Position numbers and translations under genes: made by a program
Part shown: piece after piece, positions 35,050 to 52,878 of the stretch
Layout of the letters: every line of letters begins with the position of its first letter
Position numbering within the stretch: position 1 is the stretch's first letter
Assembly: GCA_045862955.1 (NCBI GenBank)
Contig: BTVI01000006.1
Location: 37,703 to 101,702, forward strand
Length of the DNA: 64,000 bases
Reading direction: 5' to 3'
From: Fimbriimonadales bacterium
GTDB lineage: Bacteria > Armatimonadota > Fimbriimonadia > Fimbriimonadales > JABRVX01
Notes under the pieces: generated by a model
Told to the model about the DNA's origin: nothing
What the model saw: only the letters and a program-made list of their open reading frames with translations
Database searches by the model: none

Positions 35050-35116
35050 GTCGGCGCATAGCCTAACACGCCGCGGGCCCCGAGGTCAAGCGCGCAGGGC
35101 TCCAAACCTCGATTGC

Positions 35117-35145
35117 TTGACACGACGTGCTGACGGGGCTATACT
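35117..35145 (+). promoter_or_regulatory. sigma70 promoter of tRNA-Gly
   Basis: TTGACA, 17 bp, TATACT. Confidence 0.75.
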
Positions 35146-35156
35146 TCGATTGTCGA

Positions 35157-35231
35157 GCGGGAGTAGTTCAGCGGTAGAACGTCAGCTTCCCAAGCTGAAT
35201 GTCGAGGGTTCGACTCCCTTCTCCCGCTCCA
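35157..35231 (+). tRNA. tRNA-Gly(CCC)
   Basis: GCGGGAG/CTCCCGC acceptor stem, TCAGC-TTCCCAA-GCTGA anticodon arm, GGTTCGA T-loop, CCA end. Confidence 0.96.
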
Positions 35232-35327
35232 TTCCCTCTCCTTTCAGGACCTCTTGCGTAGCAGGCATCGCCCACACCGTACGGAATCAGGGGGTGAGAC
35301 TCGCATAGCCCTGAAAGGAGCTCCGGC

Positions 35328-36425
35328 ATGAAGTGGTCTTGGAGAATCGCAACGTACTCGGGTATTCCCGTGTACATCCACGCCACGTTCCTCTTACTTA
35401 TCGGGTTCGTGTTGTGGGTGCACTTCGAGCAGGGGCATAACCTCGCAACCGCGCTCGGGGGCGTCGCATTCATCCTGCTGCTGTTCCTCTGCGTGATTCT
35501 GCACGAGTTCGGACACGCGCTCACCGCAAAGCGCTACGGCATCAAGACCCGCGACATCACACTGCTTCCCATCGGTGGGGTGGCACGGCTCGAGCGCATG
35601 CCGGACGACCCTCGCCAGGAGCTGTGGGTGGCTCTTGCGGGTCCCGCGGTCAACGTGGTGATCGCCGTCGGACTGTACGTCGTGCTTTCTCTCACTAGCG
35701 GGCTCGAGGACCTGTCGCGTACGCAATTGGTCGGAGGCGGTCTGCTGCCGAAGCTGATGCTGGTAAACGTCTGGCTCGTCGTGTTCAACATGCTGCCCGC
35801 ATTTCCGATGGACGGGGGAAGAGTGCTTCGCGCTCTGCTCGCCATGCGCATGCCGTATGCTCAGGCGACCCAGATTGCGGCGGGCCTCGGGCAAGGCATG
35901 GCGTTCATCTTCGGTTTCATCGGGCTGTGGATCGGACACCCCTTCCTGATCTTCATCGCGCTGTTCGTGTACTTGGGAGCGGCAGGCGAGGCGTCCGCCG
36001 CCGTAATGCGCGCCTCGTTCGAGAACGTGCCGGTACGCGAGGCGATGGTAACCCATTTCCAGGCGCTGGACGCCAACTCGCCGTTGCAAGCAGCCGTAGA
36101 CGCACTGCTGGCGGGCTATCAGCAGGACTTCCCCGTCCTTGAGAACGGCGCGGTGGTGGGGGTCCTGACGCGCCAAGATTTGGTGAACGCGCTGGCTGCC
36201 GGGGGACCGAGCCAACCCGTTGCAAACGCGATGCGGCGCACGTGCGATGCGCTAGATGCCGAGCAAATGCTGGATGTAGGGTTCCAGCGCATCCAGGCTT
36301 CGGAGTGTCATTCGCTGCCAGTCCTGAGCCGCGGCCAGTTGGTGGGAATGATTACGGCGGAGAACATCGGCGAGTTCGTGATGGTGCGCACGGCCCTCAC
36401 CGAGCGAGCGCGACGCTCTCGCTAG
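35328..36425 (+). CDS. site-2 (M50) zinc metalloprotease with tandem CBS domains
   Basis: HEFGH, AGPAVN, FNMLPAFPMDGGR; two C-terminal CBS domains. Confidence 0.93.
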   Translation: MKWSWRIATYSGIPVYIHATFLLLIGFVLWVHFEQGHNLATALGGVAFILLLFLCVILHEFGHALTAKRYGIKTRDITLLPIGGVARLERMPDDPRQELWVALAGPAVNVVIAVGLYVVLSLTSGLEDLSRTQLVGGGLLPKLMLVNVWLVVFNMLPAFPMDGGRVLRALLAMRMPYAQATQIAAGLGQGMAFIFGFIGLWIGHPFLIFIALFVYLGAAGEASAAVMRASFENVPVREAMVTHFQALDANSPLQAAVDALLAGYQQDFPVLENGAVVGVLTRQDLVNALAAGGPSQPVANAMRRTCDALDAEQMLDVGFQRIQASECHSLPVLSRGQLVGMITAENIGEFVMVRTALTERARRSR

Positions 36426-36540
36426 GCGACACGGTCCAATGTCGGCTAGCCCGGGCCCGCGTCAAGGCCGATTGTCCCGATTTCAGCAGCTTGGTGATGG
36501 GCCGATATTTCAATAGTTCTATAATCATCGTAGCAACGCG

Positions 36541-36924
36541 ATGACACCGGACCAATCTCAGCTGGCAAGATACTTCAAGGCCCTGGGCGACCCTACCCGG
36601 CTTCGCATCTTCTGCTTTCTGCGGGACGCTTGTCGCCCGGTCGCCGTGGATGACACCGGCGATGTGCGGCGCGTACGCGGCCAGACCGTGGGAGAGGTGT
36701 GCTGCCACGTTACCGGCGTGGAGCGGGCCTCGTCGGCCATCTCCTTTCACCTGAAGGAGCTGCGCACGGCGGGTCTGATTGACGTCACTCGGAAGGGCCG
36801 TCACCTCATCTGCGCGGCCAACCACGAAGCCATCGAAGCCTTGGCGGCCTTCTTCGCGGGGGGCTGGGAGAAATCGGGTGTAGACTGCTGCGTCGAGGAA
36901 GGAGCAACGAAGAGTGGCAACTGA
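36541..36924 (+). CDS. arsR: ArsR/SmtB-family repressor
   Basis: FKALGDPTRLRI, VGEVCC, ISFHLKELRTAGLI, C-terminal CC; heads the ars operon. Confidence 0.9.
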   Translation: MTPDQSQLARYFKALGDPTRLRIFCFLRDACRPVAVDDTGDVRRVRGQTVGEVCCHVTGVERASSAISFHLKELRTAGLIDVTRKGRHLICAANHEAIEALAAFFAGGWEKSGVDCCVEEGATKSGN

Positions 36925-37747
36925 GAACGACCGATTCGAACAGGTTGAGCAAGCCGTGCGCGAGAGGTACGCGGGAGCGGCCCTGAGCGTCATATCGGGG
37001 AGCAAGGGCAGTTGTTGCGGTTCGGGGGGCTGCGACCCCGTGACCGCGGACCTCTACGGCCGGGAGGAGGCGGGTGCGCTGCCGGAGCAGGCCCTGCTCG
37101 CCTCGCTCGGCTGCGGCAATCCGACCGCGCTGGCCGAGTTGACCGAAGGCGAAATCGTTTTGGACCTCGGCAGCGGAGGCGGAATCGATGTGCTGCTGTC
37201 GGCCAAGCGAGTGGGTCCATCGGGGTTCGTCTACGGGCTGGACATGACGGACGAGATGCTGGAGCTGGCCGAGCGGAATCGCGCGGCGGCGGGCGTCGAA
37301 AACGTACGCTTCCTAAAGGGGCACATCGAGGACATCCCCCTTCCTGACGGCAGTGTGGACGTGATCATCTCGAATTGCGTGATCAACCTCTCCGCCGACA
37401 AAGACCGAGTGTTTGCCGAGGCTTTTCGGGTGCTTAGGCCCGGAGGGAGATTCGCCGTGTCGGACGTGGTGGTGGACGGAGAGTTGCCCGAGTCCGTGCG
37501 AAAGGACATGGAGCTGTTCGTCGGGTGCATCGCCGGCGCGCTGGAGCGCAAAGACTATATGCGAAGGCTCGAGGCGGCCGGATTCGGCGATATCGCCGTG
37601 GTGCCGACCCGGCGCTACACCTTCGCCGATGCCGATTCGATGGGACTGGAGTCCGATGCACTTCGCTCGATGACTCCCGAGGAGCGAAAGCGACTGGACG
37701 GTCGTATCATGGCGGCATTCATCCGCGCAAGGAAGCCGCAAGCGTGA
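36914..37747 (+). CDS. arsM: arsenite S-adenosylmethionine methyltransferase
   Basis: [36 protein letters not shown]. Confidence 0.95.
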
Positions 37748-38151
37748 AGCGGGTGCTGTTCGTCTGCGTACACAACGCTGGCAGAAGCCAGATGGCCGAG
37801 GCGTTCCTGCGGCGGCTCGGTGCGGACGTGGCAATCGCAGAGTCAGCGGGCACCGAGGGTGGCGCGACACTCAACCCGACGGTGGTCGAGGCAATGAACG
37901 AGATCGGTTACGATATGTCGGGCCATGCGCCCAAGCTGCTGACGCCGGAGATGGTACGAGCAGCCGACAGAGTGATCACCATGGGATGCGGGGTGGACTC
38001 GCAGTCATGCCCGGCATTGCACATGGAGTGCGAGGACTGGGGGTTGGACGACCCCAAGGGGCGCCCGCTGGAAGAGGTCCGAAAGATACGAGACCAGGTG
38101 CGCGCCCGAGTGGAGCAGTTGGTGGAGGAGTTGAGACGATGCGAAGGTTGA
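37744..38151 (+). CDS. arsC: arsenate reductase (LMW-PTP family)
   Basis: [21 protein letters not shown]...CP, DDPKG; GTG start overlaps the arsM stop. Confidence 0.92.
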
Positions 38152-39185
38152 GCTTGCTAGACCGCTACCTTACCCTCTGGATCTTTCTGGGTATGGCATT
38201 CGGCGTGGCCCTCGGGCACTTCTGGCCGGCTGTGGCCGAGATCAGCACGAAGTTCCAGGTGGGCACCACGTCTATCCCCATCGCGGTGGGTCTAATCCTG
38301 ATGATGTACCCGCCGCTCGCCAAGGTGCGATACGAAGAGCTGCCCAGGGTGTTCCGAGACTTCCGAATCCTCGGCATCTCGCTGCTACTCAACTGGGTGA
38401 TCGGTCCGGTGCTGATGTTCGCGTTGGCGATCCTGTTTCTGGCAGGCTACCCGGAATACATGGTAGGTCTGATCATGATAGGTCTGGCCCGATGCATCGC
38501 GATGGTTATCGTGTGGAACGACCTCGCCAAGGGCGACACGGAGTATGCCGCCGGGTTGGTCGCGTTCAACTCGATCTTTCAGGTCTTCTTCTACTCGGTG
38601 TATGCGTACGTGTTCGTCACGGTGCTACCACCGGTGTTCGGATTGAAGGGGAGTGTCGTTCAGATAAGCATCGGTCAGATTGCGGAGAGCGTGTTCATCT
38701 ACCTCGGCATCCCGTTCATCGCAGGCATGCTGACGCGGTACACGCTCGTCCGAGCGAAGGGGCGAGAGTGGTACGAGCGCAGGTTCATTCCGGTGATATC
38801 ACCCATCACCCTTATCGCTCTGCTCTTCACCATCGTTGTCATGTTCTCGCTGAAGGGCGAGGTGATCGTGCAACTCCCGTTAGACGTGCTGCGGATCGCG
38901 GTGCCTCTACTTATCTACTTCGTCGCGATGTTCCTGGTCTCGTTCTGGATCGGGAAGAGCTTGGGCGCCGACTACTCGAAGACCGCGACGATCTCCTTCA
39001 CCGCGGCGAGCAACAACTTCGAACTGGCAATCGCCGTGGCGGTAGCAGTCTTCGGGATCAAGAGCGGAGCGGCCTTCGCAGCGGTGATCGGACCTCTGGT
39101 CGAGGTACCCGTGCTGATTTCGCTCGTCAATGTCTCGCTGTGGTTCCAGCGCCGATGGTTACAGAGCATGCCCTCGGTCGCTTGA
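38139..39185 (+). CDS. acr3: ACR3-family arsenite efflux transporter
   Basis: [46 protein letters not shown]. Confidence 0.95.
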
Positions 39186-39244
39186 CTCCGAGCCATGGCG
39201 CATGCACACCCGCGCGGCGCGCACTGATGCACCCTCGCCTCTCC

Positions 39245-39685
39245 TCACCCCAGGCGCTGGCCGGGGCGGGACGTGGAGGCCTGGCCGTTGCGCTCACCCA
39301 CACCGAGGTCCAGATACCAATATCCCACCCAGCACACCGCCGCACTGCTACCCCCGATGAGAAGGGGAATTGCGGCGTCGAACACAGTATTGTACGTCAG
39401 GATTCCGTGGGATTGATACCCGAGCAGCATTCGGAAGCCATTCCAGAGCGCTGCGGCGGTAGCCGCACAAAGGGTGATGCCGATACCAGGCTGGCGACGG
39501 CTGAGATGCCAAAGTGGCCCTAGAACGACCAGCCCGAGCCCGCCAAAAACCAGCGCGCTCACTGCGGCCCCCTGGCTGTACACTCCCGTGCCCACGCCGA
39601 TCGATACCCATACGAGCCCGGAGAGGAAGCCAGAAACGAACCAGATGCCCGCGACCATGCCACACCGGGCCAGCCACTTCCCCAT
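39245..39685 (-). CDS. hypothetical 4-TM membrane protein
   Basis: Four hydrophobic segments; GGAGG RBS; last gene of the minus-strand cluster. Confidence 0.7.
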   Translation of the reverse strand: MGKWLARCGMVAGIWFVSGFLSGLVWVSIGVGTGVYSQGAAVSALVFGGLGLVVLGPLWHLSRRQPGIGITLCAATAAALWNGFRMLLGYQSHGILTYNTVFDAAIPLLIGGSSAAVCWVGYWYLDLGVGERNGQASTSRPGQRLG

Positions 39686-39689
39686 CGTC

Positions 39690-40318
39690 CTACCTCCCGC
39701 TCGCTCCCTCGATGAAGTACGTGGCGTTATCGCAGAACGCGAAGGCCCATGGGTCGCCTTCGTCCAGCCCGGGCACGCTTACCACCGATCCATCTATCTG
39801 GAGCCGCAATACCTGACAAACGGCACGAGCGTCGTCTGATTCCTGCACTTGTGCCCGTGCCATGGACATGCGAGAATGCCGAGACGAGCGGCTCGCGCCA
39901 GAATCCAGCGCCAGTGGTAGGCCGAGTCCCAGGGCTCGAAGTGGCGGATGTAGTAGTAGCTGACAGGATAGCGAACGTAGGGCGGCAGATCCCACGGGCA
40001 ACCGAAGATGAGGGGGAACCGTGTCCCGGTGGTCGGTCTCGGGTCCGCATCGCAGTGCATTACCCTGATGTCCTTTGCGTACGGCTCGATGGCCGACAGA
40101 TACCGTGGCGCGTTCCGCCAGCCGCCGTATTCGTCGCAGTAGGCTTGAAACGCGACGTAGAGGTTGCGCAGATTCGTCGTGCAGGACGTGCGCAGTGACT
40201 GTCGTCGCGCCTGCAGCACGACGGGGTAGATCAGCCCCAACACGACCGCTATTATCGCGACCACCACCAGCAGTTCGATAAGAGTGAAGCCGCGACGCCA
40301 CCGGTGCCGCGCCCGCAT
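39690..40318 (-). pseudogene. prepilin-type N-terminal cleavage protein, frameshifted near 39815
   Basis: [19 protein letters not shown]...CTTNLRNL...ACPWHG. The expected C-terminus VLRLQIDGSV lies in another frame that ends at 39690. Confidence 0.6.
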
Positions 40319-40419
40319 CGCCGGCGCACGTACACTGCCGTGGTAGCAATGAGGACCCGTTGCCGGGGCTGCACCGTCGCCTCCTCGGCGGCCGAGGTTC
40401 CAGTGTTTTCGCCTAACCA

Positions 40420-40794
40420 TCATTGCACCCAGGCAGGGCAGACGAAGTTCTGCAGGTCGTTGGCTCGGGCCTCCTCACACGAGATGGTGAAGTTGCAGCA
40501 GCCGCCGTTCAGCACGCACGGATCGGGGTAGCAGTCTGCCACATGCTTGCCGAGCAGGGCGCCTGTGTATGGAACGTAGCAGCAGTAAAGCCAGCAGCCC
40601 CAAGCGTATCCGTAGTTCCAACTGACAGGATTGCAGTAGTGCCTGGGCCAGTCGTAGCAGGCGGTGATCGGCCGCCAATACCTTATCCAGGACTCTCCCG
40701 GGCCGCATGGCACCGCCCCCGTCACGGCGATCCAACCCACGGCCCCCAGGGCCGCCACCATCGCGGCTTCTCTCCAAAGCGATGTCCAGTTCAT
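40420..40794 (-). CDS. secreted cysteine-rich small protein (12 Cys)
   Basis: GGAGGAG RBS; ATGA overlap with the upstream gene; hydrophobic leader followed by ~95 aa with 12 Cys, rich in Trp/Tyr. Confidence 0.7.
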   Translation of the reverse strand: MNWTSLWREAAMVAALGAVGWIAVTGAVPCGPGESWIRYWRPITACYDWPRHYCNPVSWNYGYAWGCWLYCCYVPYTGALLGKHVADCYPDPCVLNGGCCNFTISCEEARANDLQNFVCPAWVQ

Positions 40795-41733
40795 TTCTCT
40801 CCTCCGGTTTCCAGCACCCGTTCCACCTGCCGCAATATGGCCGCAGCGTCGGCGTCCTCGACGAGCCAGGAGGAGTGTTGCCAAACGACCCTGCCCTTCG
40901 GGTCGGTGACGACGACAAGAGGCGACATACGGATGGTGATGGTGTACCGAAGCGGGGTACTCGCGGTCTCCACTGGACGCTGGAAGATCCGTGAGTACGT
41001 CGCCAAGTCCTCTTTGGGTCGCACGAATGCTACACGCTGCCCGAAGGCGGCCCGGAGAATCCGGTACGCCGACTCACAGGGTGGGCACCCTGGCTTCCAT
41101 TACAAACACTCGATTGGCGATTGCCGTTGGGCCGACCTCGACTGATTGCACGAACCTCTGCGCCGGGACCCCGAGGAGTGACGGCTGCTGGGGGCGCGCG
41201 CCCACCGGCGCAGGCCCACGATCCGTCTGCATGGCAACGCTCTTGGTGGCAACTGCCGAGGACCCCCAGACCGCGAGCGACACGCCCACTAACACACCGA
41301 CAGGGAGCGGCCCGGCAAGTTTCGGCATGGGCATACTCGGCTGGACCGCTGCGGGCATGGCCCCCCCGAGAAGGCTCACCAGGAGGGGCAGCACGATCGG
41401 CTCCGTCAGGCGGGGCAACCCGTGCAACTCGCGAAAGCGTTGGTACGCGCGTCGCGACCCCGGCTCGGACCAGTCCCACACCTCGATCCCCGGTGTCCGT
41501 AAGATCTCGGCAAGCATCGCGCGGCACTGGGGGCAGCTCGGGGCGGTCACGAAGTAAGCGTCGTACTACGCGGCGAGCGCATCAGTCTGTGCTGAAGCCG
41601 AAAGGGAGTAAGCTACTACTGTCGGAAAACCCGCTGCTGCAACGAGGACGGGCAGCAGACCGACTAGGACGCGGCTCCGCGTGGAGCGAGCCCCGGCAGT
41701 GGCCTCAGAAGAGGGTGGTGGCTTCGCGATCAC
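40791..41733 (-). pseudogene. membrane protein with two thioredoxin-like CxxC domains, disrupted
   Basis: TM segment, in-frame TAG at 41566-41568, YFVTAPSCPQC, second TM, 1-bp frameshift at ~41097 into KPGCPPC...PLVVVTDPKGRVVW. Confidence 0.6.
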
Positions 41734-41831
41734 CTGAGGACCTCACTCGGACTCTAATATCGCACACCCTCTCACGAAATGCGAGACCGCGCCGAGTCTC
41801 GAATCCGCCCTCACTCCATCTGGCCTGATAG

Positions 41832-43640
41832 CTAAGGCTTTGGGAGACCAAAAGCCGAGAGCCACTCGCAGAGCCTTTGCACCCGCTCGGGGCCGGCCTC
41901 GGGTAGTTTCAGCGGCCTGCCGCGCGCGTCAATGATGATGCCCACCACACCGCCGTTGAGCGCTCGTCGCACCGACTTGCCCTTGCCCTCCCCCACATCG
42001 AATCCACGTGCTGGGCGAATCTCCGCCTCGACCGTCTGACGCTCCGGCAGTGGGATGACCAGGATATCCCCGAATGCCACCTTGTGCTCCGCACCGCCGA
42101 TGGAGACAGTGACGCATGGGTCTCCGCGCTTTGCCAGTCCCACCGGGGCGATGCAATCCCCCAACCTCACCAAGCAGTCCCGATCGAACACCTGATCGGC
42201 CGCTTCGGGCAAGACCTTGGACAGCACGCCCAACTGCGGCATCATGAAGATGGAGTCCACCGCGAGCATTGTGATGCCCTGCGGTTGATAGGCATCCATC
42301 ATCATCAGGGCGCTCTGCGCACGGCGCGGGGCGTGGCTGAGGACGCCTCCCGAGCCGATGATCATGCCCAGCGCGAACATGTCCACCAGCGTCATTCCGG
42401 TCTCGGTCTGCTCGAAGGCTTCGCCGATGCCCCGCTGCTGCTGGACTCCCTTCAGACCTCGAGCCAGCAGTTTGTGATGCTCGAACGCCAGCCGAAGCGC
42501 TTCTCGGGCCACAGCCTGCTCCAGCAGCAGGTCGTGATAGGTCTGTGGGATGGTGGTAGGCCGGATCATTTTGTTACGCATCCGGTTGCGCACCTCGAAC
42601 GGATCGATCTCGAAGGGCACCCAGCGCTGAATGTTTGCAACGCCGGTCTCCGCGAGCACATTGCAGATCGAGTAGCTCATGCCGAGGTTTGCGGAAACCG
42701 TGCGGTTCGCCGTGCCTCCGAATACAGAAAAGGTGTCCGTGGTGGCACCGCCGATATCCACACCGAGAATGTCCATCCCGCGCTGACGCGCGATGGTCCG
42801 CATGATTTCGAAGACCGCGTTCGGGGTAGCCATGATGTCCTCGCTAACCCACTCGGACAGTTTGGAGTAGCCGGGCGCCTGCTGCATGACGTGCTCGAGG
42901 AATAGCTCGTGGATGGCGTCGCGGGCGGGGCCGAGTTGCTCTTTGTCGAGGCTCGGTCGGAGGTTATCCACGATCCGGACGTCGATCTTGCTTCCGAGCG
43001 TCTCTTTGATCGTCTCTCGGGCATCCTTGTTACCCGCGAAGATGACGGGCAGCTTCATACCACCGAAGCGGGGCTTCGCGTCCGCAGCGAAGATAGTCTC
43101 CGCGATGTTATTGAGTTGGTCTACGTTCCCACCGTCGGTACCACCAGAGAGCAGAACCATGTCGGGCCGGAGCATCCTCAGCCGTTCGACCCGCTCGTGC
43201 TCCTTTCGGCCGTCGTCCACGGCGACCACATCCATGATGATGGCTCCGGCGCCCAGTGCGGCGCGCTCTGCGCTTTCCGCGCTCATGGTGCGCACCAGGC
43301 CCGCAACCGTCATCTGAAGGCCGCCACCCGCACTCGAGGTAGAGAGATAGAGATCCGCGAAGTTCTCGTCCTTGCGCGTTCCGATTCGCTTGCCCCGGTG
43401 GATGTACGAGAAGACCTTGCCTGTTTCATCCAAGAACTTCTTGCCGGAAAGCTCCTCGACTTCGCTCACAGCGTTGACGACGCCTACGGTGACGTCCTCG
43501 AACGGTGCTTCTACCGTAGTCGGAGCCTCACCTCGGACGATGAGCCGGTACTCGTCTCCCTTCTTCTCGATGAGAATGGCCTTGGTGGTGGTGCTGCCGC
43601 AATCCGTTGCGATGATGGTCTGGACTTCGTTGTCGGACAT
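41832..43640 (-). CDS. glmL: glutamate mutase L (GlmL/MutL-like ASKHA protein)
   Basis: ATDCGSTTTKA, STSSAGGGL, SGGTDGG, VDIGGATTD, GSGGVLSHAP. Confidence 0.82.
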   Translation of the reverse strand: MSDNEVQTIIATDCGSTTTKAILIEKKGDEYRLIVRGEAPTTVEAPFEDVTVGVVNAVSEVEELSGKKFLDETGKVFSYIHRGKRIGTRKDENFADLYLSTSSAGGGLQMTVAGLVRTMSAESAERAALGAGAIIMDVVAVDDGRKEHERVERLRMLRPDMVLLSGGTDGGNVDQLNNIAETIFAADAKPRFGGMKLPVIFAGNKDARETIKETLGSKIDVRIVDNLRPSLDKEQLGPARDAIHELFLEHVMQQAPGYSKLSEWVSEDIMATPNAVFEIMRTIARQRGMDILGVDIGGATTDTFSVFGGTANRTVSANLGMSYSICNVLAETGVANIQRWVPFEIDPFEVRNRMRNKMIRPTTIPQTYHDLLLEQAVAREALRLAFEHHKLLARGLKGVQQQRGIGEAFEQTETGMTLVDMFALGMIIGSGGVLSHAPRRAQSALMMMDAYQPQGITMLAVDSIFMMPQLGVLSKVLPEAADQVFDRDCLVRLGDCIAPVGLAKRGDPCVTVSIGGAEHKVAFGDILVIPLPERQTVEAEIRPARGFDVGEGKGKSVRRALNGGVVGIIIDARGRPLKLPEAGPERVQRLCEWLSAFGLPKP

Positions 43641-43743
43641 GTCGTGCGCGTTCCTCCGGCGGTTGGGTCGGGGTGGATTCGACCCAGAGTCTAGCATTGC
43701 GCGGGGCTTCGGCAAAACGAAACCAGTTTTCTGGGCTCCGGGC

Positions 43744-43772
43744 TTGACAGACAGCGATTCCTGGGTTAGACT
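43744..43772 (+). promoter_or_regulatory. sigma70 promoter with no downstream CDS
   Basis: TTGACA (43744-43749), 17 bp, TAGACT (43767-43772). Confidence 0.7.
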
Positions 43773-43775
43773 GTA

Positions 43776-44030
43776 GTCAGTGAGAGGACGGATCACCGTC
43801 CCGGTTCGGAGCAGGAAACTGCTCGAATACTTTGTTTATCGCCTTGACTTGGATAGGAAGAGGATGCAATAAGCATCCCGTCTCGCAAGTACACTGACAA
43901 TTGTGTTTGTGATTCCTCGATCTGGATAGGTACGGGTCTTACGACCCATCACTGCTTTGTAGTGTTTGGACCAATCTGGCTGGCGTGAGTGCTCCCTAGT
44001 GAGCACTCGGGTAAGCACTCACCCAGTCAT
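43776..44030 (+). ncRNA. candidate structured non-coding RNA of unknown family
   Basis: Own promoter; at least six hairpins plus a closing helix; no credible ORF. Confidence 0.55.
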
Positions 44031-44038
44031 TCCCGTTC

Positions 44039-44716
44039 TCAGTCTTCCCTGCACACCGTTAGCGCCGTAACGTGGCTCGCACCGGCCGCCATCAGCTCCC
44101 CCGCACACTCTCCCAGCGTGTAGCCGGACGTGTACACGTCGTCCACCAGCATGAAGCTTCGCCCCGTCACCCGGCCGCGGTTCACCACCCGGAACGCACC
44201 TGCGATGTTCCTACGCCGCTCCTGCCGTGTGCGCCCGACCTGCGGCGGAGTTCTTCGGTGCCTGACGAGCACGTCCGTAGCGCAATTCAACCCCAGGGCC
44301 TCTGCAACCGGTCTGGCGATCAGTTCCGCCTGGTTGAACGTCCGCTGCCGTTGCCGAGAGGCGTGGATGGGAACAGGTATGACCTCGTCCACGTCCGCTA
44401 CCTCGGGCCAAGCTCGCACTGCCTCCGCCAGCAGCTCACCGAGAGCGTTCCCTAGCGCGTACACGCGGTCGTACTTCAGTCTACGCACCGCAGCGCCGGC
44501 CGCTCCGTCGTATCGAAAGGCGGAACGGCAGGGGGCGGGCTGCTCCGGGCAGTGGTCGCAAGCGCCGCCCGGCCTGCCACAGCGCGGGCAGACGGGGCCC
44601 GATATGGGTTCCAGTAGTTGTCGGCAGTCGTCGCAGAAGACGGTGCGCCGAAGGCCGTCACAGACTCCGCATCGCGGAGGGAACAAGAGGTCGAGCAAAC
44701 CCTCGACCAGAAACAT
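44039..44716 (-). CDS. comF: ComF family protein (double zinc ribbon plus PRTase)
   Basis: LFPPRCGVC, CPRCG, PVPIH...RTFNQA, LVDDVYTSG. Confidence 0.93.
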   Translation of the reverse strand: MFLVEGLLDLLFPPRCGVCDGLRRTVFCDDCRQLLEPISGPVCPRCGRPGGACDHCPEQPAPCRSAFRYDGAAGAAVRRLKYDRVYALGNALGELLAEAVRAWPEVADVDEVIPVPIHASRQRQRTFNQAELIARPVAEALGLNCATDVLVRHRRTPPQVGRTRQERRRNIAGAFRVVNRGRVTGRSFMLVDDVYTSGYTLGECAGELMAAGASHVTALTVCRED

Positions 44717-45229
44717 CTAGTTCAGCTGCTCCAGCAGCACCTTGCTTCGTTCGTCCAGCGCAGACCAGTCAGGTATCTCGAATCGCACACCGTCAACGCT
44801 GGTGATCATCCACCTACCAGGCGAAAGCTCGTACGCGTTGTCACGCCAGTGCCGAACGTAGAACTGACAGCGCCCTCGGGTGGTCTCCACGTCGAACAAC
44901 CAAAGTGTGGCGTCCTGCTTCAGTCCTTTGATCGCTAGGATCGAGGGGGTGAAGTAGCGGCGGGCGAGGTCCTGGCGGACGATGGCTGCCTGTGTCTCAG
45001 GCAGTACCCCGACATCCTCGATGAGGCCGATCTCGTGACCATCGGCATCGTACGCCCCGATGAACCGCTCTGGATCGGAGAACGGGTAGGCGCGAGCGAA
45101 GTGAACATCGTAGTAGGTTGTCTCTCCGCCGACCGTCACCTTGGGGGTCTGTCTGCGCTCGTCCATCTCGATCTGCAGTTCGCTCGGAGCAAGAACCCGC
45201 ACCTGCGGCATCGGACGCTCGCCACTCAT
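44717..45229 (-). CDS. DUF1854-like protein
   Basis: RAYPFSDPERFI, ARRYFTPSI, VETTRG, DGVRFEIPDWSALD. Confidence 0.75.
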   Translation of the reverse strand: MSGERPMPQVRVLAPSELQIEMDERRQTPKVTVGGETTYYDVHFARAYPFSDPERFIGAYDADGHEIGLIEDVGVLPETQAAIVRQDLARRYFTPSILAIKGLKQDATLWLFDVETTRGRCQFYVRHWRDNAYELSPGRWMITSVDGVRFEIPDWSALDERSKVLLEQLN

Positions 45230-45397
45230 ACAACGATTCTACCGCGCTCTCCGAAAGCGCCACCGTACCCTAAAGAGGACACCGCCGACTACCGAAATCT
45301 AGGGTAGGCGGCAAGCGCTACCGGTGGGCTTCGCGCTGGGGCGAAGACGACGGCTTGGCTTGCGCCAAATACCCAATTACGGAGTTAAGGGAAGAGC

Positions 45398-45676
45398 ATG
45401 AAGAGCAAGAACTCTCAGACCACCACCAACTACACCCCCGGGACCGCTCCCGTCTACAATTGGAACGACATCAACGAGCCGGGCACCTACCTGTTCATCG
45501 AGTGGGGCACGCTTTGCCGCGTCCCCTACGACGGCGTTGCAGAGGGCAGGAGCCCGCGGGTGACGTTCTTTAGCAACATCCCCGTCGCCGTGGCGAAGCT
45601 GTCCGACGATCCGTACATCCCGATCTCCAAGGCTCGCCAGCTTGCGGCGGACAACGACCTCGTCGTCAACTTCTAA
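45398..45676 (+). CDS. small hypothetical protein (92 aa)
   Basis: Good RBS, biased codon usage and a following hairpin; INEPGTY...KARQLAADNDLVVNF. Confidence 0.75.
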   Translation: MKSKNSQTTTNYTPGTAPVYNWNDINEPGTYLFIEWGTLCRVPYDGVAEGRSPRVTFFSNIPVAVAKLSDDPYIPISKARQLAADNDLVVNF

Positions 45677-45702
45677 GCGGTTCCTAGAGACCGAACGATT
45701 CA

Positions 45703-45730
45703 TCGGGGAGAGAGCTAGCTCTCTCCCCGA
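45703..45730 (+). terminator. hairpin after small ORF
   Basis: TCGGGGAGAGAGCT/AGCTCTCTCCCCGA perfect palindrome. Confidence 0.6.
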
Positions 45731-45807
45731 TTCCGTTGCTGCGTACAGGCCTTCGCTAGACCCGTATGCGGCTGCTGCAGCTCGTAATCGCGGAGTCCCG
45801 CCGAGCC

Positions 45808-46936
45808 CGGTTCCCCCTGCAGCTCTGCGGAAGGGGGGAACCTCGAGGAACGGTTCCCCCTGCAGCCCTGCGGAAGGGGGAACCTTAAGGAGGGGGTCGC
45901 TTCCCCATGCCCCGGCCCGCGCCCGCCGCACAGCACCGACGCGTCGCGCGCCGCTGACCCAAGGACCGCGCCGGGGCAACTGCAGCACTTGCGCCCCCTG
46001 GCGGTCCTTTGGCCAGCCGAGCGCCGCGGCCCCCGAGAAGAACCCCCTCCCCAGCTTCGCAGGCCCTCCCCCTTCCGCAAAGCCTCCAGGGGGAGGGGTT
46101 GTACGCGCAAGCCTTTCCTCGCCTTTCCGGATTGCCACCCAGAGGAGGCAAGGAAAGCCGCAGAGATCGCAGACGGTGAGAGGCGGCGTGAGGACAGCGG
46201 TTCCCCGTGCAGGCTTTGTGGAGGGGGGGGCGAACCTGGAGGAACGGTTCCCCCTGCAGCCCTGCGGAAGGGGGAACCTTAAGGAGGGGGTCGCTTCCCC
46301 ATGCCCCGGCCCGCGTCCGCCGCGCAGCACCACCTCACCGCGCGCCGCCGACCCAAGGACCACGCCGGGGCAACTGCAACACTTGCGCCCCCTGGCGGTC
46401 CTTTGGCCAGCCGAGGGGCGCGGCCCCCGAGAAGAACCCCCTCCCCAGCTTCGCAGGCCCTCCCCCTTCCGCAAAGCCTCCAGGGGGAGGGGTTGTTCGC
46501 CCTAGCCTTTCTCCGCCTTTCCGGATTGCCACGCAGAGGACGCAAGGAAAGCCGCAGAGATCGCAGCTAGCAGGAGGCGGCGTGAGGACAGCGGTTCCCC
46601 CTGCAGGCCCTGCGGAAGGGGGAACCTTAAGGAGGGGGTCGCTTCCCCATGCCCCGGCCCGCGTCCGCCGCGCAGCACCACCTCACCGCGCGCCGCTCAC
46701 CCAAGGACCGCGCCGGGGCAACTGCAACACTTGCGCCGTCTTGGCGCTCCTTTGGCCGGCCGAGCGCCGCGGCCCCCGAGAAGAACCCCCTCCCCAGCTT
46801 CGCAGGCCCTCCCCCTTCCGCAAAGCCTCCAGGGGGAGGGATTGTACGCCCCGGCCCGCGCCCGCCGCACAGCACCGACGCGCCGCGCGCCGCCGACCCA
46901 AGGACCGCGCCGGGGCAACTGCAACACTTGCGCCGT
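45808..46936. repeat. tandem mosaic of ~350-395 bp GC-rich palindromic units
   Basis: CGGTTCCCCCTGCAG...GGAAGGGGGAACCTTAAGGAGGGGGTC unit starts at ~45851, ~46245 and ~46592, plus a partial fourth copy at ~46847-46936. Confidence 0.9.
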
Positions 46937-47278
46937 CCCGGCGATTGGGAGTATCCGGCGAGGGCGCCGGAATTACCTCTTCCGACGCAGGCCGCGTCGC
47001 CGACGAAGACGATATCGATCCCGTCGGAACTGCCGAGGACCGGCGTGCCGACGGGGTGCCCATCGCAGGTGTAGGTCCAGACCGGATTCGCTCCAACTGA
47101 GAACACGCCGTTGGTCTGCGATACCTGGTAGCAATACACCTTGTCGTCGTCGGCCCCCACGTAGAACCGGTAGCCGCGCTGCTCATCCCTTGGACCGGGC
47201 GCCACACCGGTCGCTGGCGCGGGGGGGGGTGAACAGGTACGCAGCCGCGACGGCTGCGAAGAAGAGGCATCCTTTCAT
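46937..47278 (-). pseudogene. fragment of secreted PQQ/BamB-like beta-propeller gene
   Basis: Signal peptide MKGCLFFAAVAAAYL; frameshift at a C9 run; FYVGADDDKVYCY, PVWTY, GTPVLG, IVFVGD blades; frame then runs into the repeat mosaic. Confidence 0.55.
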
Positions 47279-47612
47279 CGTCTTGGGTCTCCGCATGTGC
47301 CGAGCTCGGCCCGTGCGGCGGCTCTGGCTGCAACGTCGCCCGCGGGAATCTACTTAGCACACGAGCACGGGTGCAGCAAAGCTCGCTGATCCGCAACCTC
47401 GCGCAAGTTCGTTCTACACGAGCGCACTGTGCTAGCCATGCTAGGACTCTGCAGTATGGGGCCGCCGGCCTCGACGGCTCGACTGCGAAGCCTACGAGAG
47501 TGCCCCTGCGCGGTCCCCGGCTTATGCTGGATGGGAGCTTTACCGAAATGGATCCGGACGCGCGCTGGGGCATGAAGATCGAACCGGCCCGAGCAGTCAG
47601 ACGATGGGGCTG

Positions 47613-48554
47613 CTACTGCTTCGCCAGCAGCCGGTACTTCGCGCGGTCAAGCAGCACAGCGAGCAGAAGGATGACGCCCGTTACCACCATCTGGTAGAAC
47701 GCGTCCACGTTCTTCAGACGCATCACGTTCTCCACGATGCCCATGATCAACACCCCTACCACGGTGCCGCTGATAGTCCCCACGCCACCGGACAGCGACA
47801 CGCCGCCCAGCACGCAGGCCGAGATGGCCTGAAGCTCTAGCTTCTCTCCCGCGTTGTTACTCGCTACCACCAGGCGCGAAGCCGTGATTACCCCCGCGAA
47901 TGCTGCGGCCATGCCCGAGATGACGAACACGGCCATCTTGGTCCTCGCCACCGGAATGCCGGCCAAGTGGGCAGCTTCGCGATTGCCCCCTATGGCCAGC
48001 GTGTTGCGCCCGAACACCGTCTTGTTCAGCATGATGCCAAACAGTACGAAGAACGCGATCATGATCCAGATGGGCAGCGGCACCGAGAGGTACGTCTGAT
48101 TGCCCAGGTACTCGAAACCCGGTCGCGAGGCGGTTACCGGCGTCCCGTGCCCCAAGATGTTCGTCAGGCCGCGCACGATCTGCATGGTGGCCAGAGTGGT
48201 GATCAGCGCGTTGATTCCGAAGCGAGAGATCACCACACCGTTGACCGAGCCCACCAAGGCACCGGCAGCCACCGCACACAACGCTCCGTACCACAGACTC
48301 CCCGAGGCGTTCGCGACCAACACCGCCACCATGCCGCCAAGCGCGAGAGTGGAACCGACAGACAGATCGAAGTCACCGCCCGCCAGGCAGAACAGCATTG
48401 CGCAGGACACGATCCCGACCGACGAAACTTGCAGCCCCAGGCTGATCATGTTGTCTAGGCTGAGAAAGCGGGGAGTGATCAGGAATGCGGCCACCACGAC
48501 GAAGCCGAACACCACGATCATGCCGGACTGGACAACGAACTGCTTGAGGTTCAT
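47613..48554 (-). CDS. araH: monosaccharide (arabinose-type) ABC permease
   Basis: GDFDLSVGS, TVFGRNTLAIGGNREAAHLAGI, ELQAISACVLGGVSL. Confidence 0.85.
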   Translation of the reverse strand: MNLKQFVVQSGMIVVFGFVVVAAFLITPRFLSLDNMISLGLQVSSVGIVSCAMLFCLAGGDFDLSVGSTLALGGMVAVLVANASGSLWYGALCAVAAGALVGSVNGVVISRFGINALITTLATMQIVRGLTNILGHGTPVTASRPGFEYLGNQTYLSVPLPIWIMIAFFVLFGIMLNKTVFGRNTLAIGGNREAAHLAGIPVARTKMAVFVISGMAAAFAGVITASRLVVASNNAGEKLELQAISACVLGGVSLSGGVGTISGTVVGVLIMGIVENVMRLKNVDAFYQMVVTGVILLLAVLLDRAKYRLLAKQ

Positions 48555-50044
48555 GCGGACACTCCGGTGGAGACGGACTTGGGCAGTGCGAGTTCCAGCA
48601 GAGCCTGCTCAGTAGCCTCCGAGGTGGGCATCTCACCGGTGACACGGCCCTCGCACATCACGATGACGCGATGGCTCAGCGCCAGGATCTCGGGCAGTTC
48701 GCTGCTGACGAAAACTACGCCGATTCCTTGTGCTGCTAGCCCGCGGACGATGCCGAAGATCTCGGCCTTGGCTCCGACGTCGATCCCGCGCGTAGGCTCA
48801 TCGAACAGGATTACCTTCACATCTTCGCTGAGCCAGCGCGCAAGGATCACCTTCTGCTGGTTTCCGCCGCTCAGATTCGCTACGGGGGTCTCTAGCGACC
48901 CAGTGCGGATGCGGAGCTTTTCGATGAAGCGTTGCGCGTTCTCCCGCTCCCGCCGAGCGGCCAGCCACACGCGCAGGCGCGCCAGTGCTCGGCGGATGCT
49001 GAGATTGATGTTCTCGGACACCGAGAGCATGGGCACGATGCCCTCCTTCTTCCGGTCCTCCGGACAGAAGACGATGCCCGCACGGATCGAGGAATCGGGC
49101 CCACGGCGCGACACTGGCACGCCACGGACCAGCACCTCGCCCACACGGCCCATGTAGATGGCCTTCAGCAGTTCGGTCCGGCCCGCACCGACGAGTCCGA
49201 AGATGCCGACAATCTCTCCCTCCCGGGCGACGAGGCTGACCGGCTCGGCCAGGCCAGGGCCGTGGACGCCCCGAACTTCGAGCACAGGCGGACCATACTC
49301 GGCTGGGATCTCGGACTTGACATGGATCAGTTCTCTGCCCACCATGCGGTTGGTGATCACCCCCGCGTCCACGCCCTCCATGCTCGTGAAGGTCTCGATG
49401 TGCTGGCCGTCTCGAAGCACCGTACAGGCATCGCACAGCTGCACCACTTCGTCCATGCGATGCGACACATAGAGCACGGAGAGACCTCGGTCGCGCAGTT
49501 CCCGAATGAGCGCGAACAGCGTGTCTACTTCTCGCGCACTAAGACTGCTCGTCGGCTCGTCGAAGGCGATCACGCGCGCGTTCCGAGAGAGAGCCTTCGC
49601 AGTCTCCACCATCTGCCTCTGGGCGAGGCTGAGAGACCCTAATCGAGTCCACGGGTTCAGGTCCAGCCCGACGCGCCGAAGCGACTCGGTGGTCTTCCGC
49701 GCCAGCTCCCGGCGGTCCACGAACGGTCCCTTTCTGGCGAAGTGCCCCAGCCACACGTTTTCGGCCACGCTCATCTCGGGGACCAGGTTCAGCTCCTGGT
49801 AGATGACGGCCACGCCGGCATCCAGAGCCTCCCAGGTGGTGTGAAAGCGGTAGACCTTGCCGTCAATCTCGACGTGTCCCGTCTCCGGCCAGTGGACGCC
49901 GCTGAGTACCTTGAGCAGCGTGCTCTTTCCTGCGCCGTTCTCGCCACACAGCGCATGGATGCTGCCATCGGCAACGGTGAACGACACGTTCTGCAGGGCC
50001 TGCACCCCTGCAAACGACTTGGAGATGGAGTGGAAGCCGACCAC
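48551..50044 (-). CDS. araG: monosaccharide ABC ATP-binding protein (two ABC domains)
   Basis: GENGAGKST, FDEPTSSL, CPEDRK, LSGGNQQK, DEPTRGIDVGAK. Start approximate. Confidence 0.88.
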   Translation of the reverse strand: MVGFHSISKSFAGVQALQNVSFTVADGSIHALCGENGAGKSTLLKVLSGVHWPETGHVEIDGKVYRFHTTWEALDAGVAVIYQELNLVPEMSVAENVWLGHFARKGPFVDRRELARKTTESLRRVGLDLNPWTRLGSLSLAQRQMVETAKALSRNARVIAFDEPTSSLSAREVDTLFALIRELRDRGLSVLYVSHRMDEVVQLCDACTVLRDGQHIETFTSMEGVDAGVITNRMVGRELIHVKSEIPAEYGPPVLEVRGVHGPGLAEPVSLVAREGEIVGIFGLVGAGRTELLKAIYMGRVGEVLVRGVPVSRRGPDSSIRAGIVFCPEDRKKEGIVPMLSVSENINLSIRRALARLRVWLAARRERENAQRFIEKLRIRTGSLETPVANLSGGNQQKVILARWLSEDVKVILFDEPTRGIDVGAKAEIFGIVRGLAAQGIGVVFVSSELPEILALSHRVIVMCEGRVTGEMPTSEATEQALLELALPKSVSTGVSA

Positions 50045-50060
50045 GATCGTTGCTGGCCGA

Positions 50061-51095
50061 CTACGGCAACGACAGGCCCTGCTTTTTCAGAGCCTCCTTG
50101 TAGTTGGTCCTGTTGATGATGGTCCCGGTGGTGTACGTCTCCTTCGGGGGCTCTTTGCCTTCCGTGATCCATCGGTACATCATCTCTACGGTGTCGGCAC
50201 CGTGAACCCTCGGCTGCAGCAGCACCGAGGCCACCATTCCGGTCGGTGTGCCCTTCTCCCACTCTGCTGCAGCGAGCGCCCCGTTGATGCCTACTCCGAT
50301 GATGCCGCTCGCGGGAATGCCCCGATTCGAGATGGCGCGGATGCCCCCGAGCACGCCGTCATCGTTGGAGCTGAAGACCACCCACTTGCGGAAGTGGCTG
50401 CGCGCCGTCAACACGCCGTTCGCAGCGTCGCTCGCGGCTGCGATGTCCACTGAGCCGGTCCACGGCGCCTCGAAGATGTTGGCCTCCCTAAACCCGTTCG
50501 CCAGCAGCACTTCCTTGGCGCCCCTAACGCGTTGTCTCGCGGTCTCCAACGCGGGTGCCGTGATTGCTAGCCCGGCAACCTCGTCCGGCTTCCATCCGCG
50601 CCGGCCCATCTCGTCCACGATCGCCTGGCCCACCTGCTTGCCGATGTTGTAGGCGTCAATGCCGAGATGAGGGATGTCGGTGAGAGGTTGGCCGTCTCCA
50701 CCGACGAGTCGGTCGTCCACGCTCATCAGCTTCATGTTGTGCCTCGCGGCCGCCGCCTTGATGGCGCTACCGAGCTGCACCTCGGGAGAGCAGATGATGA
50801 TGCCTTGGCAGCCGTTCGTAGCCATCGAATCGATGGTGGTGAGGACGGCGTTGCCGTTGAGCGCCTCTTGGACGATGATCTCGACCCCCAATTCCTTCGC
50901 CTTCTCCTTCGCGAAGTTCGTTTCGCTCTGAAACCAGCTGTCGGCCATGGACTTGACGATGAAGCCGATCTTGACGTGCTTAGGGCCGCCGCCTGGCTCC
51001 GGCGACTTCTGGCCCGTGCCGTTCTCACCGGCTGGGTTACAACCGAACAGCAGCAGGCCGAGGGCAGCGACGACGAGTGACGCGGTTCTAGGCAT
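50061..51095 (-). CDS. araF: arabinose-type ABC substrate-binding lipoprotein
   Basis: Lipobox LLFGC; KIGFIVK...WFQSE, KLMSVDDRL, IIGVGING resemble AraF. Confidence 0.82.
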   Translation of the reverse strand: MPRTASLVVAALGLLLFGCNPAGENGTGQKSPEPGGGPKHVKIGFIVKSMADSWFQSETNFAKEKAKELGVEIIVQEALNGNAVLTTIDSMATNGCQGIIICSPEVQLGSAIKAAAARHNMKLMSVDDRLVGGDGQPLTDIPHLGIDAYNIGKQVGQAIVDEMGRRGWKPDEVAGLAITAPALETARQRVRGAKEVLLANGFREANIFEAPWTGSVDIAAASDAANGVLTARSHFRKWVVFSSNDDGVLGGIRAISNRGIPASGIIGVGINGALAAAEWEKGTPTGMVASVLLQPRVHGADTVEMMYRWITEGKEPPKETYTTGTIINRTNYKEALKKQGLSLP

Positions 51096-51206
51096 GGCAG
51101 CACTCCTTTGGGCGGATTCCGTGGCCGGGGGTACCGACGCTGCGAAGAGTGTTCGCCTCGCACCACGGATCGCCTGCTCGGAGCGAGGCTCCGGCGGCAT
51201 ACGTAA

Positions 51207-51281
51207 TGGTGGGCCCGGCAGGATTCGAACCTGCGACCAAGCGGTTATGAGCCGCCCGCTCTACCCCTGAGCTACGAGCCC
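51207..51281 (-). tRNA. tRNA with CAT anticodon (likely Ile2, otherwise elongator Met)
   Basis: GGGCTCG...GGCGG-CTCATAA-CCGCT...GGTTCGAATCC...CGGGCCC-ACCA; lacks the initiator C1 mismatch. Confidence 0.92.
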
Positions 51282-51333
51282 ACGCGCACCCGATTCTAGC
51301 ACCCTCCGAGTCTGCGCTCGCCTATAGGAGAAG

Positions 51334-52704
51334 CTAGCCGGCAACGAGAAGTGGCATGATCGTCGAAACGTCTGCACACTGCTCCAGGTTCATTACGGCC
51401 TCTCGGATCGCATCGCATCGCGCCTTGCCGAACGCTCCCGCTGCGAGCGCCTCGAACTTCACGCGGATTTCCTCCACCGTCATCGGGTCGCGGAAATCAC
51501 CTTTCGGCACGTCCACGCGCTCGGCGAAGGACCTTCCATCCTTCAGCGTCACGGTCACGCGAGAGGGTTGGATCTCCGGGAAGAGCTTCTCGAACTCCTC
51601 GTTGGCGACGGCTTTGACCGTATCCATCAGTGGATGCAGTGCGGGGTCGGCGATGCGCTGCGCAGTGAACTGCAACGGGGTGACCTGTCTATCAGCCAGT
51701 GCGACGGCAAGGCAGTAAGGCAGGCTGTGATCCGCCGTCTCCTTGGATGCGGGCCGATACTTGGCCGGGTCGGAGAGGATATCGGCTGCCCTCGCGATGG
51801 TCTCCACACGAATCTCTTGGACCTGGTCAGGACGGATGTCGTGAGCGTTCACGAGGCGAAGCAGCGCGGTGACCGGGGAGTGGGACAGGGCCTCGATGGG
51901 GAACGCCTTCATCCCGCACTTCGGGATCCGATAGTCGCGGCCCAGGCTTTCGGTGAGGAGCTCGGTTTTCCAGTCTGGCCCCAGGCAGTGCATCAGCCCT
52001 TCCTTGCCGTCCAGCACGTGCTCCGGCCCGGTGTAGCCTTTTTCGGCGAGTAACGCTGCGGTCACTCCGGCCTGCGTCGCCATCGGGTCAACTGTATTCT
52101 TCATCATCGTCAGCTTGCCGGCGGTTACCGCGCCCAGCGTGGCCGAGTGCGATGCGGAGATTCCCACGGCATGCTGGATTTGCGTCGCGCTCAGCCCGAG
52201 TGCCCGGCCGACCGCGATGGGAGCGGCGAATGCGGTCAGCGTCGCATGGTGCCAACCACGCTCACGGATCCCCGGCTGCCCGAACTCGCAGAGCCTCATC
52301 TCCATCTCGTAGGCGATGACGGTTGCCACGATGAGTTCCTTGCCGGAAAGCCGCTTCCACTCGCAGATTGCTAGCGGACCAGAGAGGATGTCCGACGGAT
52401 GGCAAGGGTCGGCCTTCCAATAGATGTCGTTGTAGTCCATTGCTCGGATGGCCAGTGCGTTGAACAGAGACGCATTCACGGCCGAAGTGCGATAGCCGGT
52501 GCCTATGCAGGTGCAGTGTGGGTTGCCGCCCATATCTTGCAGGTGGTGCAGCAGTAGCTCACAGTCCTCTTGCCGATAGCCCCCGAGCGCGCAGCCGATG
52601 GAGTCGTACAGGAACCGCTTGGCGGCGTCCACCGCATCGGGAGTGAGGTCTTCGTATCGCAGCCCGGCGGCCCACTCCGCCAAGCGATATGTGATTGTGG
52701 CCAT
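51334..52704 (-). CDS. prpD: MmgE/PrpD family protein (2-methylcitrate dehydratase-like)
   Basis: LYDSIGCALG, RAMDYND, HPSD, RGWHHAT, ETADHSLPY. Confidence 0.88.
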   Translation of the reverse strand: MATITYRLAEWAAGLRYEDLTPDAVDAAKRFLYDSIGCALGGYRQEDCELLLHHLQDMGGNPHCTCIGTGYRTSAVNASLFNALAIRAMDYNDIYWKADPCHPSDILSGPLAICEWKRLSGKELIVATVIAYEMEMRLCEFGQPGIRERGWHHATLTAFAAPIAVGRALGLSATQIQHAVGISASHSATLGAVTAGKLTMMKNTVDPMATQAGVTAALLAEKGYTGPEHVLDGKEGLMHCLGPDWKTELLTESLGRDYRIPKCGMKAFPIEALSHSPVTALLRLVNAHDIRPDQVQEIRVETIARAADILSDPAKYRPASKETADHSLPYCLAVALADRQVTPLQFTAQRIADPALHPLMDTVKAVANEEFEKLFPEIQPSRVTVTLKDGRSFAERVDVPKGDFRDPMTVEEIRVKFEALAAGAFGKARCDAIREAVMNLEQCADVSTIMPLLVAG

Positions 52705-52756
52705 CGCATTACCCCTTCGTATTGCGTGTCTTCGAGCAGCGTCGCTCGTGAATCCC

Positions 52757-52832: not shown

Positions 52833-52878
52833 CGGGCGCGAATCCTACCTGTCTGACTTGGTGCAAAGTCAAAGACGA

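Follow-up and report, generated by a model that had tools for sequence, protein, structure and literature searches.

The 398-nt gap between a GlmL-like ATPase gene and a ComF-family gene in the window (the whole stretch of DNA that was analysed, 64,000 nt) is best explained as the site of an independent plus-strand gene for a structured small RNA (sRNA), likely a stable RNA that regulates in trans, mainly via a protein bound at its long 3' hairpin, P4; we give this reading a probability of roughly 0.55. The sRNA has a size of about 260–320 bases and represents a new, lineage-restricted sRNA family; its placement on the plus strand is established by inference, from the promoter and from the logic of its G-U pairs. 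The initial annotation had proposed an unannotated, trans-acting noncoding RNA at this place; an independent, structured and conserved gene that is represented in RNA libraries is indeed found, and the trans mode of action is what we infer beyond these observations. The comparisons below involve the genome of the window (G000), a second genome of the same genus (G001), and a genome of the sister genus (G002), all of one family within the Fimbriimonadia; the host is not an actinobacterium and, to judge by the sister genus, belongs to the Armatimonadota.

Genomic context and promoter

Base composition and promoter signals set the intergenic region apart from its surroundings. The GC content over positions 43700–43999 is 0.495–0.53 vs. 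0.58–0.70 in the flanks, in agreement with the AT-rich character that had been noted at first sight. The proposed promoter of the sRNA (Table 1) is likewise borne out as the sole sigma-70-like site within 43500–44200, where shuffled sequences yield a mean of 0.2 such sites; on the minus strand of the same interval, no promoter-like site was found. Across the 20 kb from 34000 to 53999 only one site scores better, and it lies ahead of the tRNA at 35157. This top-ranking site, TTGACA-17-TATACT (11 of 12), is positioned directly upstream of the tRNA gene (35157–35228, within the plus-strand region 35117–35228), which demonstrates that stable-RNA genes of this host are marked by near-consensus sigma-70 boxes; inspection by eye places TAnAnT-type -10 boxes ahead of the host genes for 6S RNA, RNase P RNA and tmRNA, too. 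Place and spacing of the sRNA promoter are kept in the relatives, as TTGACA-17-TAGACT in G001 and as TTGACA-17-TACAAT in G002.

The sRNA has no plus-strand gene downstream, and the claim that the promoter lacks a downstream open reading frame holds: the only plus-strand frames at the locus measure 30, 34 and 44 amino acids, and none of them is conserved. Between G000 and G001 the 30-amino-acid frame differs in five residues and has one silent difference besides, and its region is absent from G002; small coding frames were rejected on these grounds of non-conservation.

Table 1. Features of the sRNA locus, in coordinates of the window.
Feature	Position	Strand	Remarks
GlmL-like ATPase gene (PF13941)	41832–43640	-	E 6.9e-125; adjacent to the sRNA and divergent from it in both genera
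Candidate promoter of the GlmL-like gene, TTGCCG-16-TAGACT	43688–43715	-	Identified by eye, under the scan threshold; tentative assignment
Sigma-70-like promoter of the sRNA, TTGACA-17-TAGACT	43744–43772	+	Scores 10 of 12
sRNA core, predicted start to conserved tail past the 3' hairpin	43779–44038	+	Start predicted from the -10 box
P1, 5' strand (GTCAGTG + GAGA)	43776–43785	+	Partner is 43881–43898
5' domain inside P1 (hairpins GGACGG/CCGTCC, GAGCAG-GAAA-CTGCTC, TATC/GATA, GGATGC/GCATCC)	43786–43880	+	Genus-specific
P1, 3' strand (TCTC ... CACTGAC)	43881–43898	+	Internal loop GCAAGTA
Linker, AAUUGUGUUUGUGAUUCCUCGAUCUGGAUAGGUAC	43899–43933	+	Predicted single-stranded, G/U-rich
P2 hairpin, GGGTC-TTAC-GACCC	43934–43947	+	
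P3 hairpin, CACTGC-TTT-GTAGTG	43950–43964	+	Identical in G001
P4, long 3' hairpin	43977–44029	+	Base of 7 bp + bulged pyrimidine + 7 bp, invariant; apex varies and covaries
Conserved tail, TTCCCGTTC	44030–44038	+	W-TCCCGTTC in all three family genomes
ComF-family gene	44039–44716	-	Convergent with the sRNA

The protein names of the neighbors are to be read at family level only: the left neighbor, a member of PF13941 ('MutL'/GlmL-like), and the ComF-family protein on the right both fall under every NCBIfam cut-off. The GlmL-like ATPase (602 amino acids, 63–72% identity across the order) scores 225 bits against an NCBIfam equivalog cut-off of 475 bits; of 151 genomes of the order, a tally that includes the unpublished genome G036, 144 contain its gene, which thus is near-universal there. 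Its candidate promoter and that of the sRNA stand back to back. The sRNA gene and the GlmL-like gene are divergent in G002 as well, where the other neighbor of the sRNA gene is a different convergent open reading frame without a Pfam match, so that the sRNA is independent of comF; adjacency to comF was seen in only two of 30 GlmL-like loci, both of this genus. Further genes of the neighborhood, all on the minus strand, include one for a DUF1854 protein (44717–45229) immediately upstream of the ComF-family gene, annotated by NCBIfam as 'cyanophycin metabolism-associated' under the cut-off, and one for a protein with a type IV pilin-like N-terminal methylation motif (39794–40423) downstream of the GlmL-like gene; between the GlmL-like and pilin-like genes, the open reading frames at 41074–41550 and 40420–40884 gave no family match.

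Architecture and predicted fold

The plus strand of 43776–44035 folds with a minimum free energy of -101.7 kcal/mol and a z-score of -4.43, and none of 200 shuffled sequences was as stable; the G002 homologue has a z-score of -2.85. All helices listed in the initial annotation occur at the positions given for them, and the repeated GGATAGG lies at 43851 and 43924. Comparison among the family genomes speaks for P1 (GTCAGTG/CACTGAC), for GGGTC/GACCC and for the long 3' hairpin, and is neutral for most helices of the 5' domain; the part inside P1 measures 109 nt in G000 and G001 and is an 18-nt loop in G002. A pseudoknot between ACTTG and CAAGT, suggested as a possibility, is not helped by the comparison: CAAGT reads GAAGT in G001, with the loss of one pair. 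The alignment with G002 offered no clear equivalent of P3. P4 comprises 19 pairs, or 23 in the hairpin model with the outer flank pairs included, and reaches predicted energies of -32.3, -28.7 and -29.3 kcal/mol in the three family genomes.

The first hairpin of the 5' domain (43786–43801, plus strand) reads CGGAUCACCGUCC; its GGAUCACC portion is shared with the 3' end of 16S rRNA, beside the anti-Shine-Dalgarno sequence. Since this hairpin is absent from the sister genus, the resemblance is probably due to chance.

No intrinsic terminator site was found within 43500–44200; P4 carries neither a U-tract nor a T-run and is followed by the tail UUCCCGUUCUC. Terminator-like sites in general are not enriched in this host region (8 vs. 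10.6 in shuffles). In G002 the conserved tail overlaps the last codons of the different convergent reading frame mentioned above, and its conservation is therefore not due to comF.

Sequence conservation, covariation and selection

Among 41 relatives searched by BLAST with positions 43700–44040, only the three family genomes match; G001 shows 91% identity over the full length, and G002 shows 75% over the last 69 nt. The sister genus nonetheless keeps the promoter, P1, a G/U-containing linker, P2, and P4 with its flanks. The three genomes illustrate how the helices are maintained. Pair 6 of P1 reads U-A, U-G and C-G, and pair 4 reads A-U, C.U (broken, in G001) and G-U; two one-sided changes of G001 within the 5' domain keep their pairing as G-U. 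P2 preserves its stem under an altered loop in G001 and has two pairs with compensatory changes in G002 (U-A to G-C and C-G to U-A). In P4 all three genomes agree in the 14 basal pairs, and four apical pairs have changed on both sides. The comparison of related loci that had been proposed as a check thus finds the RNA in each of the three family genomes, with compensatory changes in P1, P2 and the apex of P4. As a caveat, covariation was drawn from three genomes of which two are 91% identical, and it rests on few events for that reason.

Substitutions between G000 and G001 avoid the predicted helices: the 22 differences fall on 4 of 125 paired and 18 of 146 unpaired positions (Fisher P = 0.0067). 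At the distance of the sister genus, the GlmL-like gene provides a yardstick; its product is 82% identical in amino acids between G000 and G002, and of its 271 four-fold degenerate sites 97 (36%) are identical, which indicates that neutral sites are saturated between the genera. Over the same distance, ACCAATCTGGCTGG-GTGAGTG matches at 21 of 22 positions, and CACTCACCCAGTCA-TCCCGTTC at 22 of 23 (counted from the alignments). To judge from these comparisons, the sRNA is under strong selection and at the same time a very young gene, confined to one family, with sister families lacking it at this locus.

Distribution

The combination of promoter and hairpin motifs was found upstream of the GlmL-like gene in three of 30 loci, all of them in the family; in other families the stretch free of open reading frames upstream of this gene is short, 0–249 nt by a crude measure. 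Searches with the hairpin model (R1) agree. In an order-level sample of 150 genomes that included G000 and the unpublished G036, the model found the three family genomes, plus two of the 147 others at E-values of 0.058 and 0.095; a phylum-level sample of 150 genomes, again including G000, gave two matches at E-values of 0.0075 and 0.0089, one of which sits at the end of an apparent coding frame. All four additional matches were rejected as chance occurrences; the E-values of the two from the phylum sample are at about the chance level over 150 genomes.

Extension to 100 GlmL-like loci, 80 of them from metagenomes, yielded no R1 match; the 80 metagenome loci kept were all at most 73% identical and contained no further family member. 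The exact hairpin pattern did not occur in metagenome contigs, and in contigs of species-representative genomes it recovered only the sister genus. The heptamer TCCCGTT was rejected as a general motif (351 occurrences vs. about 410 expected in the genome), and its two copies ahead of GlmL-like genes of other families have no relation to the sRNA. So far, the sRNA is known from three genomes of one small Fimbriimonadia family only.

Representation in RNA libraries

Parts of the region 43000–44800 are contained in six RNA libraries, of which four, from three studies, were examined (X15 and X17 belong to one study); all four contain contigs identical to the window over the sRNA. Library X15 covers 43788–44103 at a word depth of 28.4, and X17 covers 43748–44095 at 25.6; X18 covers 43791–43968 at a depth of 9.7 and 43950–44100 at a depth of 2; X16 covers 43884–44034 at 2.1. 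The sole flank contig of X15 lies in the GlmL-like gene (43397–43665, depth 2). X16 has two pieces in the genes to the right at a depth of 2, the same as that of its sRNA piece, and thus shows no preference for the sRNA. Assembled contigs indicate neither strand nor ends, and their depth reflects expression poorly; uncovered stretches (43666–43787 in X15 and all flanks in X17) were given no weight as evidence. Within these bounds, the transcript check suggested at the outset finds contigs over the sRNA in RNA libraries of three studies. The organisms with this locus occur in sequencing runs labelled as sludge, bioreactor, wastewater or aquatic.

The X17 contig begins at 43748 and so precedes the predicted start by about 30 nt. 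The contigs of two studies stop at 44095–44103, about 65 nt past P4, which is only a weak hint of an end. These stops, together with a P4 hairpin that lacks a U-tract, make the 3' end of the sRNA uncertain between about 44035 and about 44100; the true end may lie near 44095–44103. An sRNA that extends to about 44100 would overlap the last ~60 nt of the ComF-family gene in antisense.

Proposed function and alternative explanations

In the model favored here, transcription would start at about 43779 and proceed through P1 with its variable 5' domain, then through the G/U-rich linker (single-stranded by prediction) and the hairpins P2 and P3, and the transcript would end at P4 or up to ~65 nt past it. 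As a free-standing RNA, the sRNA would act in trans; a protein would bind the invariant base of P4 and its flanks in a sequence-specific manner, and the sRNA would function either as the component of a ribonucleoprotein or as a sequestering RNA. Recognition of the P4 module by a protein is predicted because base and flanks are near-invariant and the apex covaries, at a distance where neutral sites are saturated; it is a conservation-based prediction of modest confidence. A more far-reaching version, in which the sRNA represents a new, abundant class of structured, protein-binding RNA that is confined to one Fimbriimonadia lineage and whose P4 module docks a global regulator or forms a new ribonucleoprotein, seems to us rather unlikely; if true, one variant of it would provide the first RNA antagonist in a lineage with csrA beside fliW.

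The plus-strand assignment on which this model depends has to be weighed against a minus-strand element (a comF 3' UTR or terminator, or a leader of the GlmL-like gene) and against a bidirectional terminator without function in trans, which we consider improbable. The minus strand folds well too (z-score -3.70), the contigs are blind to strand, and in both genera the convergent gene has its stop codon directly ahead of P4; yet the interval 43500–44200 lacks a promoter-like site on the minus strand, and in G002 the upstream minus-strand gene differs while the plus-strand promoter is kept. The substitutions themselves are informative: three of the four paired-position changes between G000 and G001 lead to G-U pairs on the plus strand, and these one-sided changes, as well as the invariant G-U pairs of P4, would amount to A.C mismatches on the minus strand. 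The hairpin model R1 accordingly scores 107.7 bits on the plus and 31.3 bits on the minus strand. A plain terminator, moreover, does not explain invariant hairpin arms when four-fold degenerate sites have dropped to 36% identity.

For a plus-strand sRNA, the mode of action is the next point of contention, and here a base-pairing, Hfq-assisted sRNA deserves tentative consideration as the main rival, although we would not bet on it; its linker would serve as a seed for C/A-rich mRNA sites in the manner of GcvB, and P4 as a terminator or stabilizer. Since Hfq genes are present in all three family genomes, this mode is just as feasible; ProQ was not found in any of the three. The linker is suitably placed between stable hairpins, contains 66% G+U in its 35 nt in G000 and G001, and shares, by eye, a core of AUUGU..UUUGU between the genera; the sRNA gene is divergent from its neighbor, as gcvB is from gcvA. 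Against these points, the two genera have very dissimilar linkers (35 nt vs. 52 nt with 52% G+U in G002), the U-rich 3' tail is missing, and a seed model does not predict the invariance of both helix arms. A target scan of 2662 start regions, based on crude gene calls, did not stand out from shuffled controls; the best duplex of 43896–43935 reached -36.1 kcal/mol and eight shuffled linkers reached -36.3 to -42.0 kcal/mol. The start region of the GlmL-like gene ranked 46th of the 2662 as a linker target.

Sequestration of CsrA through repeated UGGAU/GGA motifs, as in CsrB and Rsm RNAs, is a poor prospect by comparison. CsrA genes (PF02599) occur in all three family genomes, and the sRNA of G000 contains nine GGA motifs vs. 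4.9 expected (P 0.0135) and four GGAU motifs vs. 1.2 expected (P 0.017), with one UGGAU in the P1 hairpin loop of G002; but GGA is not enriched in G002 (3 vs. 3.9) and only weakly in G001 (7 vs. 4.7, P 0.13), most GGA motifs of G000 are placed inside predicted stems, and P4, the best-conserved part, has none. The csrA gene, furthermore, is part of a flagellin-fliW-csrA cluster. Such a FliW-linked arrangement is known from Bacillus. CsrA of this type is antagonized by the FliW protein, and to our knowledge, no sRNA sponges are known for it. On contig C10 of G000 (62632–65787), genes for a flagellin-like protein, FliW and CsrA stand in a row and are followed by a GcpE (IspG) gene. A second 6S-like or an Ms1-like RNA polymerase binder, finally, appears very improbable. 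Some bacteria have two 6S RNAs, and the size of ~260–320 nt, the strong structure, and a library word depth far above that of the flank contig would suit this role; on the other side, RF00013 gave no match at E ≤ 10, canonical 6S RNA exists in the host and in both relatives, and the predicted folds show no rod that is formed by pairing of the two ends and interrupted by a central bubble. The neighborhood of a HAD hydrolase and an oxidoreductase that goes with Ms1 (PMC9130861) is absent, and Ms1 has been described in Actinobacteria, whereas the host belongs to the Armatimonadota. Protein binding at the P4 module thus remains the preferred reading.

In the portion of the literature consulted, no publication on small or noncoding RNAs of Armatimonadota (Armatimonadetes) or Fimbriimonas was found; the sRNA would be a first candidate regulatory RNA of this little-studied phylum with comparative, structural and metatranscriptomic support. 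It also makes a clean case of an RNA gene that is very young and yet strongly selected, and it will gain more than limited practical importance only with a partner or a phenotype.

Comparison with known RNA families

The suggestion of a new RNA class is upheld by a search against the 4227 families of Rfam, which produced no match at the gathering threshold in the whole window, and none at E ≤ 10 on either strand of 43600–44100; only two hits appeared, both at chance level and to eukaryotic families. The initial failure to match the RNA by eye to tmRNA, RNase P or SRP RNA is confirmed as well: none of them matches in the region, and all are found elsewhere in G000 (SRP RNA at 68.7, RNase P RNA at 312.3 and tmRNA at 159.8 bits).

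With 6S RNA, the sRNA shares the character of a noncoding RNA of a few hundred nucleotides with a strong promoter of its own. The proposal of a divergent 6S-like RNA was not borne out: RF00013 remained without a match at E ≤ 10 on either strand of 43600–44100, the host has its 6S RNA elsewhere, as do both relatives, and the molecule is not a rod closed by its ends, since the predicted folds have the 5' domain alone enclosed by P1 and a row of separate hairpins along the 3' half. The 6S RNA of the host (contig C7, 53367–53540) scores 46.5 bits, barely above the Rfam cut-off of 46.4, and G001 and G002 each have a counterpart; outside the family, genome G023 of a different family reaches 38.2 bits, and a 5.2-Mb genome (G055) gave no match. 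The 6S model is near its detection limit in this order.

The likeness to CsrB, RsmY and RsmZ consists in several GGA/GGAU motifs and in the presence of CsrA in the host; the differences are a low motif density that is not conserved in G002, and the location of csrA in the flagellin-fliW-csrA cluster. GcvB combines multiple hairpins with a G/U-rich linker, and gcvB is divergent from gcvA. The sRNA resembles GcvB (RF00022) in its multi-hairpin form, its single-stranded G/U-rich linker, and a gene divergent from its neighbor; it differs in that no Rfam match was obtained, the neighbor is a GlmL-like ATPase and not a LysR regulator, and predicted targets show no excess.

The raiA motif RNA invites comparison by its genomic position. 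It is a structured RNA of ~200 nt and an independent, abundant transcript, as a rule a neighbor of comFC and located downstream of it in 74% of cases (PMC10861870); the family (RF03072) has helices P1–P8, two pseudoknots and 51 conserved positions, and is reported from Bacillota and Actinomycetota. The sRNA described here also abuts a ComF-family gene, but it lies on the strand opposite to comF, this adjacency is limited to one genus, and the host belongs to the Armatimonadota; RF03072 matched neither the region at E ≤ 10 nor the whole genome at E ≤ 1, and no raiA/hpf gene was seen beside the sRNA. Ms1 is similar as a structured, abundant and stable RNA of ~300 nt. Searches for Ms1 have been defined by the neighborhood of a HAD-IB hydrolase and an oxidoreductase, in Actinobacteria (PMC9130861); this neighborhood is not matched by the GlmL-like, ComF-family and DUF1854 genes of the present locus in an armatimonadotal genome, which speaks against an Ms1 identity. 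The sRNA is thus set apart from Ms1 by phylum and gene neighborhood, a distinction made by description and not by sequence. The closest correspondence is with trans-encoded sRNAs in the generic sense: the locus has its own promoter, no conserved open reading frame, a conserved structure, and a transcript in RNA libraries whose strand and ends are deduced.
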